DNA of 64,000 nucleotides from Deltaproteobacteria bacterium (lineage in GTDB: Bacteria > Myxococcota > JADLHZ01). Positions within the stretch are counted from its first letter, which is position 1. Each line of letters starts with the position of its first letter. The stretch is from positions 32,420 to 96,419 of the forward strand of contig JADLHZ010000047.1 in NCBI GenBank assembly GCA_020848545.1, in the 5' to 3' direction. The position numbers and the translations under genes are program-made. Of the stretch, positions 3,381 through 8,147 are shown in pieces. The notes below the pieces were generated by a model that saw nothing but the letters and a program-made list of their open reading frames with translations, searched no databases and had not been told where the DNA came from.

Positions 3381-4493
3381 ATGAGCTTGAAGATCAACCA
3401 GGACCACTCGCGCTTCAAACAGATCGTCCGCGGGAAGATCAAGCAGAACCTCAAGAAGTACATCTCGCAGGGCGAGCTCATTGGGAAGCAGGGCAAGGAT
3501 CTCATCTCGATTCCGATTCCGCAGATCGAAATTCCGCACTTCACCTACGGACAAAAAGACACGGGCGGCGTCGGCATGGGCGACGGCGAGATCGGCCAGT
3601 CGCTCGGCGGCGATCCGCAGGACGGCGACGGCAAGGGCGAGGCCGGCGAAAATCCGGCCGGCGATCACATGCTCGAGGTCGACGTCACGCTCGAAGACCT
3701 CGCCGACATCTTGGGCGAAGAGCTCGGCCTGCCGCGCATCCAACCGAAGGGCAAAGAGCAGATCGACAGCTACAAGCTGAAGTACACGGGGGTGAATACG
3801 ACGGGCCCGGAGTCGTTGCGGCACTTCAAGCGCACGTACAAGCAGGCGTTGAAGCGGCACTTGCTCAGCGGCACCTTCGATCCAGCGCGGCCGATCATCG
3901 TGCCGTCGCGCGAAGACAAGCGCTACCGCACGTGGAAGGTCATCCACGAACCGTTCGTCAACGCCGTCATTATTTATATGATGGACGTCTCGGGCTCGAT
4001 GGGCGACGAGCAGAAGGAGCTCGTGCGCATCGAGTCGTTCTGGCTCGACGCTTGGCTGCGCCGCCACTACAAGGGCCTCGAGACGCGCTTCATCATCCAC
4101 GACGCCGTCGCCAAAGAGGTGGACCGCGACACCTTCTTTCACACGCGCGAGTCCGGCGGCACGATGATCTCGAGTGCCTACAAGCTCTGCGCCGAGCTCA
4201 TCGAGCAGAACTATCCGCCGCAGCAGTGGAACATTTATCCGTTCCACTTCTCGGACGGCGACAACTGGAGCGCGGACGACACCAAGGTGTGCATGGACAT
4301 CTTGAAGAAGCGCGTGCTGCCGTTCGTGAACATGTTTTGCTACGGCCAAGTCGAGAGCCCGTACGGCAGCGGCCAGTTCATCAAGGATCTGCGCGAGACG
4401 CTCGGCAGCGAAGAGACGGTCGTCACCAGCGAGATCAAAGACAAAGAGTCGATCTACGGATCGATCAAAGACTTCCTGGGGAAGGGAAAGTGA
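3381..4493 (+). CDS. yeaH: YeaH/YhbH family protein (DUF444, vWA-like; PrkA-associated)
   Basis: 370 aa. Conserved DUF444 blocks ([19 protein letters not shown]). RBS GAAGGTGAG upstream. Followed directly by spoVR. Confidence 0.85.
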
Positions 4494-4515
4494 TCATGAC
4501 GCACGAGGCCGCGCG

Positions 4516-6006
4516 ATGACGCTGACACCCGAGCTCCTCGCCCTGCGCGACGAGATCAGAGGCTACGCCGTCGGTTACGGCCTCGACTTCTTCGAGACCG
4601 TGTTCGAGCTCGTCGACTTCGAGCAGATGAACATGGTCGCGGCGTACGGCGGCTTTCCGAACCGCTATCCGCACTGGAAGTTCGGCATGGAGTACGAGCA
4701 GCTCAGCAAGAGCTACGAGTACGGCCTGCACAAGATCTACGAGCTCGTGATCAACAACGACCCGAGCTACGCGTACCTGTTGGAAGGCAACGCGATCGTC
4801 GATCAGAAGTTGGTCATGGCCCACGTCTACGGCCACGTGGACTTCTTCAAGCACAACTTCATGTTCTCGCACACCAATCGCCGCATGATCGACGAGATGG
4901 CGAACCACGGCACGCGCTGCCGCCGCCACATCGAGAAGTACGGCCATGACCGCGTCGAGAACTTCATCGACATGTGCCTGTCGATCGACAACCTCATCGA
5001 CTACCAGGCGCCGTACATTCAGCGCCGCCCGTCGAAGAACGCGCCGCCGAAGAGCGACGTCATCGAGCACGACGTGCCGAAGCTCAAGGTGATCAAGCCG
5101 TACCTGCAAGACTTCATCAACCCGAAGGAATTTCTCGACGCGCAGAAGAAGAAGCTCGACGACCAGAAGAAGGCCGAGAAGCGCTTCCCCGAACACAAAG
5201 AACGCGACGTGATGCTCTTCCTCTTGGAGCACGCACCGCTCGAGTCATGGGAGCAAGACGCGTTGGCGATGCTGCGCGAAGAGGCATACTACTTCGCGCC
5301 GCAGGGCCAGACGAAGATCATGAACGAAGGCTGGGCGTCGTATTGGCACGCCACGATCATGACGCAGAAGGCGCTGAACGCGAGCGAGATCATCGACTAC
5401 GCCGATCACCACGCCGGCACGATGGCGGTGCAGCCGGGGCGCTTGAACCCATACAAGCTCGGCTTGGAGCTGTGGCGCGACATCGAAGACCGTTGGAACC
5501 GCGGCCGCTTCGGTAAAGAGTACGACGACTGCGACGACTACGCGAAGAGGAAGCACTGGGACAGGCAGCTCGGCCAGGGCCGTAAGAAGATCTTCGAAGT
5601 GCGCAAGCACTACAACGACGTCACGTTCATCGACGAGTTCCTGACCATGGACTTCGTGCGCGAGAACAAGATGTTCGTCTACATGTTCAACCGAAAATCG
5701 CAGAACTGGGAGATCACCGACCGCGACTTTCGGCGGGTGAAGCAGAAGCTGCTCGACTCGCTGACGAACTTCGGCCAGCCGATCATCCGCGTCGTCGACG
5801 GCAACTACCAGAACCGTAGCGAGCTCCTCTTGGAGCACGAGCACGACGGCGTCGATTTGCGCATGGACTACGCGCGCGAGGTCTTGCGCAACGTCTATGC
5901 CTTCTGGAAGAGACCGTGCGGCGTGGCGACGCGCATCGACGATCGTGGCGTGATTGTGCGCTTCGACGGCACTGATTACGAAGAGCAGAAGTACGAGAAA
6001 CTGTGA
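4516..6006 (+). CDS. spoVR: SpoVR family protein
   Basis: 496 aa. Conserved SpoVR N-terminus (GLDFFETVFELVDFEQMNMVAAYGGFPNRYPHWKFGMEYE). Classic yeaH-spoVR pairing. Confidence 0.85.
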   Translation: MTLTPELLALRDEIRGYAVGYGLDFFETVFELVDFEQMNMVAAYGGFPNRYPHWKFGMEYEQLSKSYEYGLHKIYELVINNDPSYAYLLEGNAIVDQKLVMAHVYGHVDFFKHNFMFSHTNRRMIDEMANHGTRCRRHIEKYGHDRVENFIDMCLSIDNLIDYQAPYIQRRPSKNAPPKSDVIEHDVPKLKVIKPYLQDFINPKEFLDAQKKKLDDQKKAEKRFPEHKERDVMLFLLEHAPLESWEQDALAMLREEAYYFAPQGQTKIMNEGWASYWHATIMTQKALNASEIIDYADHHAGTMAVQPGRLNPYKLGLELWRDIEDRWNRGRFGKEYDDCDDYAKRKHWDRQLGQGRKKIFEVRKHYNDVTFIDEFLTMDFVRENKMFVYMFNRKSQNWEITDRDFRRVKQKLLDSLTNFGQPIIRVVDGNYQNRSELLLEHEHDGVDLRMDYAREVLRNVYAFWKRPCGVATRIDDRGVIVRFDGTDYEEQKYEKL

Positions 6007-6509: not shown

Positions 6510-6895
6510 GCGCCCTCGATCTTCTGACCGACGCCTGCGCCGGCCTGCCGATGACCATTCGAAAAATGTTCGGCGGCCACGGCTTCTTCGCTCCGAACGG
6601 CGGCATGTTCGCCGGCATCGTGACGGACGACGAAGTGATCTTCAAGCTGAAGGACGCAACAGCGAAGGCCGAGCTCGTCGCGCTCGGCGGCCACCCGTGG
6701 ACGTACCAAGGTAAGTCGAAGCCGATGACGATGGCCGAGTGGATCGTCGTGCCGCAGGCGTTCTACGACGATCAGGAGCTCTTCGCTTCCTGGGCCAGGC
6801 GCGCGCATCGGCTGGTGCCGCCCAAGATCGCGACGAAGGTCCAGTCGAAGCGCGCAAAGACGAAGCCGAAAAAAGCCGCACGCGCCAAGAAGTAA
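6506..6895 (+). CDS. TfoX N-terminal domain protein
   Basis: The RKMFGGHGFF...NGGMFAGIV motif is typical of the TfoX/Sxy N-domain. GTG at 6506 overlaps the upstream stop (GTGA). An alternative ATG at 6551 is possible. Confidence 0.55.
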   Translation: MSALDLLTDACAGLPMTIRKMFGGHGFFAPNGGMFAGIVTDDEVIFKLKDATAKAELVALGGHPWTYQGKSKPMTMAEWIVVPQAFYDDQELFASWARRAHRLVPPKIATKVQSKRAKTKPKKAARAKK

Positions 6896-6896
6896 G

Positions 6897-8147
6897 ATGC
6901 CGCTCACGGACTACTTGCTGCTCGCCGAGCTCGGCCGCGGCAAAGACGGCCGCGTGCTGAAAGCGATGGGCCCGCGCGGAGTCGTCGCTCTGAAGCTGCC
7001 GCATGGCGACGCGCGGGCGCACTACCGGCACGCGCTCGAAGCCGACTGGTACGAGGCGCTCGCCGGCTGCGACGCCATCCCGGGGCTCATCGAGCGCGGC
7101 GCCCCGAGCGAACCATTCCTCGCGCTACGCTACGCGGCCGGTGGCTCGCTCGTGCGCGCGCGCGTGGGGGACGCCGACCGCGTGGTCGATCGTGTTCGTG
7201 CGTGCTCGGCGGCGTTGCACGCGCGCGGCGTGTACCTGCCGACGCTCGGACCCGATGACGTGCTCCTCGACGACAAGGGCGACGTGCGGCTCTGCGACCT
7301 CGCGGCGGCCGTTCCGCTGACGCCGCTCGCACGCCACGAGCTCGAACCTCTGGCGCCGGCGCTCCGCGGCCGCGGGTGGACCTTCGATCCGCTGCGCGGC
7401 CCCGACGTGGACTTACCGTACGCGCTGCTTCGCCTCGGCTTGCGGGATCGTGCGCGCATGCCGATGGCGCGGCGTCCGGGCGCGTTCTTGCGTGGCGAGG
7501 TCGACGTGCCGGAGCTCGCCGCCGGGGCCGATGTTCACCGCGTCACGTGGGACACGCCAGCGCTCGATGTCACGGCGCTGCTCACGCCCGGCGTGCACTC
7601 AGCGACCGCGAGCGTCGATCTCGCCGCCGCCCTCGCCGCCCAAATCCGCGGCCGCTGCTTCGTCCTCCGGCTGCCGCGCGCCTACACGGACGCGTGGTTC
7701 CTTCCGGTCCTCTTCGAGCAGATCCGCGTCAAAGCCCGCATGCTGCCGGACGCCACCCTGCGCACGCTGCTCCCGCCCTCCCTCGACCCGCTCCTCGCCG
7801 TCCATCACGCCGCCCTCGCCCGCCGCCTCGGCGCCGAAAAGGGACCGGGGAGCGCCGCGAAAAGGGACCGGGGAGAAGGGACACCGGAAAAGGGACCGGG
7901 GAGTATCGCGCCGGGGAGTATCGCGCCGGGGAGTATCGCGCCGGGGAGTATCGCGCCGGGGAGCGACGCGGAGGCGATCGGCGCCATCGCCGCGATCGCG
8001 CCGTGCACGATCGTGCGCCTGGTGCCGCGCGGGCTGGTCGTGGCCCGGCCGCCGGCGGTCGACGGCGTGTGCTGGATCGATGTGACCGAGGCCGACGCGC
8101 TCTTGCATCCGAGCGGCGTCGTGGCGGGGGCTATTTCTTCCCTGTGA
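6897..8147 (+). CDS. Atypical protein-kinase-like protein (paralogue family 1 of 3) with an in-frame tandem-repeat insert
   Basis: Gly-loop-like LGRGKDGRVL, VVALKLP (VAIK-like lysine), DD...VRLCDL catalytic/DFG-like region. ATG 2 nt after the TfoX stop. Shares the ALKVP/ALKLP signature with 12420..13805 and 16624..18048. Confidence 0.55.
   Translation: MPLTDYLLLAELGRGKDGRVLKAMGPRGVVALKLPHGDARAHYRHALEADWYEALAGCDAIPGLIERGAPSEPFLALRYAAGGSLVRARVGDADRVVDRVRACSAALHARGVYLPTLGPDDVLLDDKGDVRLCDLAAAVPLTPLARHELEPLAPALRGRGWTFDPLRGPDVDLPYALLRLGLRDRARMPMARRPGAFLRGEVDVPELAAGADVHRVTWDTPALDVTALLTPGVHSATASVDLAAALAAQIRGRCFVLRLPRAYTDAWFLPVLFEQIRVKARMLPDATLRTLLPPSLDPLLAVHHAALARRLGAEKGPGSAAKRDRGEGTPEKGPGSIAPGSIAPGSIAPGSIAPGSDAEAIGAIAAIAPCTIVRLVPRGLVVARPPAVDGVCWIDVTEADALLHPSGVVAGAISSL
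7836..7975. repeat. In-frame tandem repeats inside the kinase-like CDS: 3 copies of gaaaagggaccgggg followed by 4 perfect copies of the 15-bp unit gagtatcgcgccggg (encoding PGSIA x4)
   Basis: Read directly in the sequence at 7836-7901 and 7901-7960. Confidence 0.85.

Follow-up and report, generated by a model that had tools for sequence, protein, structure and literature searches.

In most bacteria the genes prkA, yeaH and spoVR form one operon, with E. coli as a split case in which yeaGH is separated from ycgB; strong cofitness of the three genes is also reported (Price et al.). Here we present an analysis of a 64-kb stretch of DNA, referred to below as the window (GC about 60-69% per 2-kb bin), from a metagenome-assembled genome (MAG) labelled "Deltaproteobacteria bacterium" (locus tags IT381_), in which yeaH and spoVR head a string of five closely packed genes and prkA is found on the opposite strand, 14.8 kb from spoVR. 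All three members of the PrkA-YeaH-SpoVR module are intact in the window, with full-length Pfam matches and 55-79% identity to the proteins of unsplit operons. Unlike the E. coli operon, which is broken after yeaH, as is that of B. subtilis, the operon in the window is broken between prkA and yeaH, and foreign genes follow spoVR.

For the genes that follow spoVR, the described systems to be compared include the class II chaperones of type III secretion systems (T3SS), such as SycD/LcrH with YopB/D and IpgC with IpaB/C, for which PxLxxP is a documented chaperone-binding motif. A further point of comparison is the SctF/SctG/SctE set, in which the needle protein SctF has two chaperones, SctG and SctE, represented by PscF-PscG-PscE; the PscE-F-G proteins form a three-protein complex, on which the analogy drawn below is based. 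Bacterial Hanks-type pseudokinases and the TfoX/Sxy competence regulators are also relevant. The Myxococcus xanthus T3SS* (MXAN_2434-2464) is a needle-less type III-like system; a 2023 review lists several homologues of LcrH for it and states that no needle, translocon or effector is known. Abby and Rocha described this system of myxobacteria as an early injectisome form.

We propose that the five-gene string is a chimeric junction, at which yeaH-spoVR meets a recurrent secretion-chaperone/kinase gene set, and not an extended PrkA operon; we consider this the probable explanation and hold it with moderate confidence. An inversion would have broken prkA from yeaH and joined yeaH-spoVR to the edge of a separate gene set, with yeaH having a promoter-like site of its own and with prkA, yeaH and spoVR all left intact. 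The gene set lying between spoVR and prkA, which recurs in other Myxococcota-type MAGs and metagenome contigs, comprises a 168-aa protein (p168), a small tetratricopeptide repeat (TPR) protein (TPR153), two kinase-like proteins (pk474 and pk416), a leucine-rich repeat (LRR) protein and a large protein with a needle-like helix (w834). A second copy of the theme, made up of a p168 paralogue (p168b), a Hanks kinase with a PEGA domain and another TPR protein (TPR244), lies at 45.8-48.5 kb. These names are pseudonyms used throughout, as is w835 for a second large protein.

The evidence for a derived split comes from 80 metagenome-contig loci found with the window SpoVR as query (SpoVR 55-67% identical), on which PrkA, YeaH and SpoVR were placed by tblastn; the 55 with enough upstream sequence are termed informative. 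The order prkA-yeaH-spoVR was contiguous on one strand in 44 of the 55, three loci had the usual order with inserted genes, four had yeaH-spoVR with no prkA upstream, and the other four had spoVR without an adjoining yeaH or were too short to judge. Upstream of prkA-yeaH-spoVR, the five loci whose SpoVR is closest to that of the window have ruvX-mltG in three cases (L012, L016 and L022) and ruvX in two (L013 and L017). The ancestral layout in related bacteria is shown to be ruvX-mltG-prkA-yeaH-spoVR on one strand and, because most relatives are contiguous and the nearest carry this layout, the split is the derived state. In the window, prkA/yeaG (20791-22896, minus strand; Pfam AAA_PrkA and PrkA C-terminal domains, E 2e-90 and 5e-90, both full length) encodes a protein 65-79% identical to PrkA of unsplit loci, and yeaH-spoVR points towards it. 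Pfam also identifies mltG (YceG/MltG; 22989-24038, minus strand) directly upstream of prkA, and ruvX (24055-24495, minus strand) in turn. Since ruvX-mltG-prkA is intact, the break falls exactly between prkA and yeaH; judging from gene order, a single inversion, about 17 kb long and with one end at yeaH, would yield the window layout.

The nearest relative, a Lake Mendota MAG labelled Myxococcota and obtained from another sample (the sister MAG, L001), shares this split: its prkA lies downstream of yeaH-spoVR at a distance of about 10 kb, on the opposite strand. Compared with the window, its segment from p168 to prkA is inverted. The presence of this split in the sister MAG, on a 203-kb contig, makes an assembly error unlikely. 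No member of the PrkA trio is missing, and the three probably still function together despite the split. An earlier sequence-only reading of this DNA had placed prkA on the opposite strand about 15 kb away, downstream of ruvX-mltG, and had taken the three genes to be usually one unit; the Pfam assignments, the measured distance and the comparison set bear out both points, with the window as a derived exception. In the nearest unsplit operons, the same-strand gene after spoVR encodes an M23 peptidase in L012, L013 and L017 (at about 11.5-13 kb) and a PP2C phosphatase in L022 (11510-12256); either may be a recurring fourth member of the PrkA module in this clade.

The five genes of the string are all on the plus strand. 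The first, yeaH/yhbH (DUF444; 3381-4493; Pfam PF04285, E 7e-91; 95% identical to the sister-MAG copy), is followed after 22 nt by the ATG of spoVR/ycgB (4516-6006; Pfam SpoVR, E 1e-135, plus SpoVR_C; 90% identical to the sister-MAG copy). The spoVR TGA overlaps the start of p168 (6006-6509), either as TGATG at 6006 or as GTGA at 6003; the start is probably the ATG at 6006, giving 167 aa. In turn the p168 TGA overlaps the most plausible start of the gene for a TfoX_N protein (6446 or 6506 to 6895), a GTG at 6506 (again GTGA), which is probably the one used. A single nucleotide separates the TAA of this gene from the ATG of pk416 at 6897 (6897-8147). GC content at third codon positions (GC3) is 0.79-0.91 in all five open reading frames (ORFs), matching the codon-position GC pattern of the genome, and the 168-aa and 416-aa proteins of the window are identical to the NCBI-called IT381_13570 and IT381_13580. 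A sigma-70-like promoter match (TTGATA-17-TACATT, 3332-3360, plus strand) lies 21 nt upstream of yeaH; the promoter scan over 7.7 kb returned 2 sites against 0.6 expected, and the site is a match to the consensus only. No convincing terminator was found inside the string, the promoter and terminator scans being weak and uninformative except for the yeaH-upstream site. From the overlaps, it is plausible that p168, the TfoX_N gene and pk416 are co-transcribed with yeaH-spoVR, an arrangement that is not conserved.

The product of the fourth gene, of about 129 aa, matches Pfam TfoX_N at 66 bits against a cutoff of 30. Like the TfoX/Sxy competence regulators it has the TfoX N-terminal domain, and no second Pfam match, and hence no TfoX C-terminal domain, was detected in it. 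The sequence-only reading had described yeaH-spoVR followed, with overlapping stops and starts, by a 168-aa gene, a TfoX-N gene and a kinase-like gene, and the Pfam results and the reading of the junctions agree with that description; the TfoX_N assignment stood on its score, and the 416-aa protein proved homologous to Ser/Thr kinases by profile, though as a pseudokinase.

The three extra genes are absent from the PrkA module in related bacteria. Using tblastn, homologues of p168, the TfoX_N protein and pk416 were found in none of the 80 related spoVR loci, and the TfoX_N gene had no counterpart in any fetched locus. The spoVR-p168 junction is common to the window and the sister MAG only; in the latter the spacer is 2 nt and p168 is 85% identical, the TfoX gene is absent at the junction, and a convergent kinase-like gene (pk418) is present instead. 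The adjacency of pk416 and p168 is found in this window alone. Orthologues of p168 with 63-77% identity are placed away from spoVR, beside a small TPR gene. Because p168 belongs elsewhere with a TPR partner, and because the extra genes are unconserved, we read the five-gene string as a lineage-specific junction and not as an elaboration of the PrkA module. The proposal that the extra genes are a conserved extension of that module is therefore not upheld. The sequence-only reading had also taken a split shared by relatives, with the extra genes unconserved, as evidence against itself, and this was found in part: the sister MAG is split and keeps only p168, whereas distant relatives are unsplit and lack the extra genes.

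The p168 family is undescribed and comprises at least 117 sequence clusters. Members were collected by an exhaustive profile search (E<=1e-3), which yielded representatives of 117 clusters, almost all of them proteins of 150-190 aa that stand alone; a word-indexed protein search gave just 8-17 relatives. No Pfam or NCBIfam family matches p168, and sequence and fold searches of the PDB gave only chance coiled-coil matches. All named sources of the family are MAGs or metagenomes, and a scan of reference genomes with a narrow p168 alignment returned the sister MAG as the sole match. The members are helical proteins of about 165 aa, and the family has an N-terminal motif RKxxxMNPxLRG, a central coiled-coil-like helix and a C-terminal motif DPN[LM]xSPKT...FLxxxGFS followed by a basic tail; the AlphaFold2 (AF2) model of the window p168 is all helical, with a predicted local distance difference test score (pLDDT) of 84 overall and 94-98 over residues 81-167. 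Of 129 members, 69 fit the pattern P-x-[LM]-x-x-P at the most conserved site of the family, and outside this site the pattern occurs only twice in these sequences.

The family profile finds exactly two copies in the window, p168 and p168b, and no third. The paralogue p168b (45845-46351, minus strand) is 29% identical to p168 over 150 aa by BLASTP (E 2e-20; profile E 2e-47) and is divergent from a Hanks Ser/Thr kinase with a C-terminal PEGA domain (46368-47771, plus strand; Pfam Pkinase, E 5e-37, plus PEGA), as the sequence-only reading had it. At their longest extents the two ORFs are 16 nt apart (46351-46368), or about 46 nt if counted from the next p168b GTG; with spacing of 16-46 nt the promoters would overlap or the transcripts would be leaderless. 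A third paralogue, P0134 (IT381_15600), lies on another contig of the same MAG. One candidate fusion of p168 with a large protein that has a needle-like end, P0064 (1056 aa, L093 10001-13171), which could have served as a Rosetta-stone protein, was rejected because the contig, a nanopore-based one, carries a 1-nt frameshift at this place. Read in the +1 frame, p168 regains a normal C-terminus and stop, and the following gene begins about 15 nt downstream; being a frameshift, P0064 is evidence of adjacency only.

The recurrent partner of p168 is a small TPR gene. A TPR gene of 137-179 aa directly adjoins the p168-family gene in L002, L004, L005, L006, L007, L008, L091 and the P0003 contig, and is one gene away in L093. 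In the window the orthologue of these p168-adjacent genes is TPR153 (8131-8592, minus strand), which encodes a protein with three TPRs, is two genes from p168 and is 40-50% identical to its counterparts in L002, L004 and L091. The L091 locus, whose p168 is 75% identical, has the order TPR, p168, convergent pk474-type kinase, pk416-type kinase and LRR; all genes of this set are present in the window at 6-18 kb, in a shuffled order. The LRR protein of the window (13805-15775, minus strand; Pfam LRR_8) has orthologues that adjoin kinase-like genes in the sister MAG and L091. Downstream of the LRR gene lies a gene of about 460 aa (12420-13802, minus strand), 39% identical to the counterpart that follows the LRR gene in the sister MAG. 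For p168b, the L092 locus has the order Hanks kinase, p168b (64% identical), TPR244, and the window has p168b, Hanks kinase, TPR244; the window TPR244 (47768-48502, plus strand) has an N-terminal TPR region (Pfam TPR_19) and a 45%-identical orthologue directly downstream of p168b in L092.

Kinase-like genes are the other frequent neighbours. Kinases are convergent on p168 in the sister MAG (pk418), L091 (pk462) and L008 (pk440), and in L007 and L093 Pkinase-PEGA genes are found at a distance of a few kb from members of the p168 family. The window pk474 (16624-18048, plus strand), a paralogue of pk416, scores 31.0 bits with Pkinase (cutoff 31.7), retains the loop FDLRADN and is 38-40% identical to pk418 and pk462. 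We had considered pk418 as an inverted orthologue of pk416 and rejected this, as tblastn shows that its true orthologue is pk474, with pk416 a paralogue. For pk416 there is no Pfam Pkinase match at E<=0.01; it matches a sister-MAG protein recorded as Pkinase at E 1e-25, and a profile built from it and related proteins finds solved Ser/Thr kinases at E 2e-13, the match covering positions 11-160, from the N-lobe through DFG. The G-loop, the Lys of VALK and the Asp of DLA are kept. The catalytic loop reads LPTLGPDD, where pk474 has FDLRADN, and with its catalytic Asp, Lys and Asn lost pk416 is a pseudokinase. It thus resembles bacterial Hanks-type pseudokinases in keeping the kinase N-lobe, the VAIK-type Lys and the DFG-type Asp, and differs from them in having no Pfam match and in that kinase similarity ends after the DFG region. 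Its closest orthologue is a 360-aa protein of L091 (37.5% identity). A perfect 15-bp tandem repeat in pk416 (4.5 copies, 7896-7963), preceded by degenerate 14-bp copies at 7862-7903, encodes (PGSIA)n and looks like a recent in-frame expansion.

Several observations point from this gene set towards type III secretion. The best NCBIfam match of TPR153 is TIGR02552 LcrH_SycD (4-132 of 136 positions, 44 bits against a cutoff of 104.8), and its AF2 model, built from an alignment of window sequences alone, has a pLDDT of 94 and finds IpgC (TMq 0.76), AcrH (0.75) and SycD (0.70-0.72) as its best natural PDB folds. The large protein w834 (9848-12352, minus strand) has no known domain and ends in a putative SctF-like helix; its C-terminal domain of about 40 aa is shared with w835 and with 540-1165-aa proteins that are p168 neighbours in L005-L008 and L093. 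Pfam T3SS_needle_F (PF09392) is matched by 4 of 9 such C-termini (best E 1.2e-5), an hhalign comparison with hand-entered sequences of seven needle proteins gives a probability of 77% (E 2e-5) for an alignment of 39 columns, end to end, at the very C-termini, and a PDB profile search with the C-termini returns MxiH at E about 1. Additionally, L003 and L004 have SctR/S/T/U genes of the injectisome type in the vicinity of their p168 orthologues: the SctR and SctS genes of L003, 8-10 kb from p168, pass injectisome cutoffs and the flagellar models do not, and L004 has an SctU-like gene 4.7 kb from p168. A second cassette of the same theme occupies 48539-55813 of the window, with three small TPR genes (50278-50889, minus strand, LcrH_SycD 72 bits; 50859-51341, plus strand; 52827-53309, plus strand, LcrH_SycD 35 bits) and w835 (53306-55813, minus strand; 835 aa, with the needle-like C-terminal helix), which is 7 kb from p168b.

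Set against the described systems, the likeness to class II chaperones lies in the size of TPR153 (about 150 aa), its three TPRs, LcrH_SycD as its top match, the position of the TPR gene beside genes for presumed ligands, and the fit of the most conserved site of p168 to PxLxxP; the differences are that p168 is a small soluble helical protein and not a membrane translocator, that TPR153 falls under the family cutoff and that apparatus genes are absent from the window. Like the SctF/SctG/SctE set, the locus has a chaperone of TPR-like type together with a small helical protein and a putative SctF-like C-terminal helix, whereas the needle-like helix ends proteins of 540-1165 aa instead of a small SctF hairpin of 70-90 aa (about 80 aa), and p168 is 2-3 times longer than SctE. 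The M. xanthus T3SS* is comparable as a myxobacterial system with several LcrH homologues and no substrates known for it, and injectisome-type Sct genes occur near the p168 orthologues of L003 and L004. Taken together, these likenesses suggest that p168 may be a binding partner of an SycD/LcrH-like TPR chaperone, either as a chaperoned substrate or as a co-chaperone, and that it would act in a pathway tied to myxobacterial type III-like secretion, with the neighbouring Ser/Thr kinases and pseudokinases as possible regulators or cargo. Through co-transcription with yeaH-spoVR, the genes for p168, pk416 and the TfoX_N protein would come to be controlled by stress or starvation, as a side effect of the rearrangement that shows no sign of conservation.

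The packing of the five genes would also fit an explanation in which the PrkA/YeaH/SpoVR pathway of this lineage has truly gained p168, the TfoX_N protein and pk416 as components, and translationally coupled expression from the yeaH promoter links the stress module to Ser/Thr-kinase signalling. Stops and starts that overlap or lie 1-22 nt apart, the lack of a convincing terminator, the retention of the spoVR-p168 junction in the sister MAG and the idea that PrkA-type modules are signalling pathways all favour it, yet we judge it improbable: none of the 80 spoVR loci carries any of the three genes, p168 orthologues sit by a TPR gene and off spoVR, the TfoX gene has no counterpart in the fetched loci, pk416 stands beside p168 nowhere else, and the junction is confined to two MAGs so closely related that their YeaH proteins are 95% identical. 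We see hardly any likelihood that the arrangement is an artefact of MAG assembly or binning, or that the extra ORFs are not real genes. The metagenomic origin of the source and the tendency of high-GC DNA to yield long spurious ORFs would allow for it; against it, an independent sister MAG has the same split and junction, the ORFs carry the codon-position GC pattern of the genome and have homologues elsewhere, and NCBI calls the same genes.

Alternatively, p168 could be an adaptor or substrate of Ser/Thr kinases that forms, with its TPR protein, a purely cytoplasmic signalling module with no secretion role, which would resemble the TPR-containing kinase-associated Mkap proteins of Myxococcus. 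Both paralogues keep kinase neighbours, with pk418, pk462 and pk440 convergent on p168, p168b accompanied by a Hanks-PEGA kinase in the window and in L092, and kinases of the same type near family members in L007 and L093. However, kinase-like genes are frequent in this genome, with three in 64 kb, so that chance alone should make some of them neighbours; no kinase is present within 8-10 kb in L002, L004, L005 or L006; and the needle-like C-termini, the LcrH-like character of the TPR partner and the occurrence of SctR/S/T/U genes close to two of the orthologues are left unexplained. On balance we find this explanation unlikely. The kinase link is nonetheless real for the p168 family and not for PrkA: of the link to signalling put forward in the sequence-only reading, the part that stood is the presence of kinase neighbours for both p168 paralogues elsewhere, and the part that did not is any tie to PrkA itself.

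We return to the chimeric junction with a secretion-chaperone/kinase gene set as our preferred explanation, against which several points have to be weighed. The tightness of the spoVR-p168 junction in two genomes leaves room for a lineage-specific functional coupling, and there are no long direct or inverted repeats at the inversion breakpoints. The 64-kb window contains no type III secretion apparatus gene, and neither a kinase nor a T3SS gene is seen within 10 kb of p168 in L002, L005 and L006. The TPR153 score is far under the curated LcrH_SycD cutoff and TPR folds are generic, with designed consensus TPRs ranking alongside IpgC. The needle-like match covers only about 39 residues at modest significance. 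For p168 itself, the strict PxLxxP motif occurs in about half of the family, AF2 places the site in a structured loop and not in a free peptide, and p168 is without a detectable relative among solved structures.

Two other ORFs of the window carry partial domain assignments. A 547-aa ORF (8194-9837, plus strand) overlaps TPR153 on the opposite strand with its 5' part, and its real start is probably near 8.6 kb; its N-terminus is weakly sulfatase/alkaline-phosphatase-like (E 0.012). A 1038-aa ORF (39536-42652, minus strand) has an M32 (Taq-type) carboxypeptidase domain at residues 543-1034, preceded by an N-terminal extension of about 540 aa in which no domain was detected.

The findings from this analysis provide a clear natural case of prkA physically uncoupled from yeaH-spoVR, in a derived arrangement whose ancestral layout can be traced, and indicate that the prkA-yeaH-spoVR trio tolerates a break at a different point than that of E. 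coli. A by-product of greater value is the p168 family, an undescribed family with a fixed TPR chaperone-like partner and with frequent neighbours that have a needle-like end. As a tentative possibility, the p168 family, its LcrH-like partner and the needle-ended large proteins may be the missing substrates or needle- or tip-like parts of the myxobacterial needle-less T3SS, with the kinases, pseudokinases and LRR protein as regulators or cargo and with the set wired to the YeaH-SpoVR starvation module in this lineage. Since the review of that system names no needle, translocon or effector, these genes, on the support of gene context and weak profile matches, would be concrete candidates for those parts.

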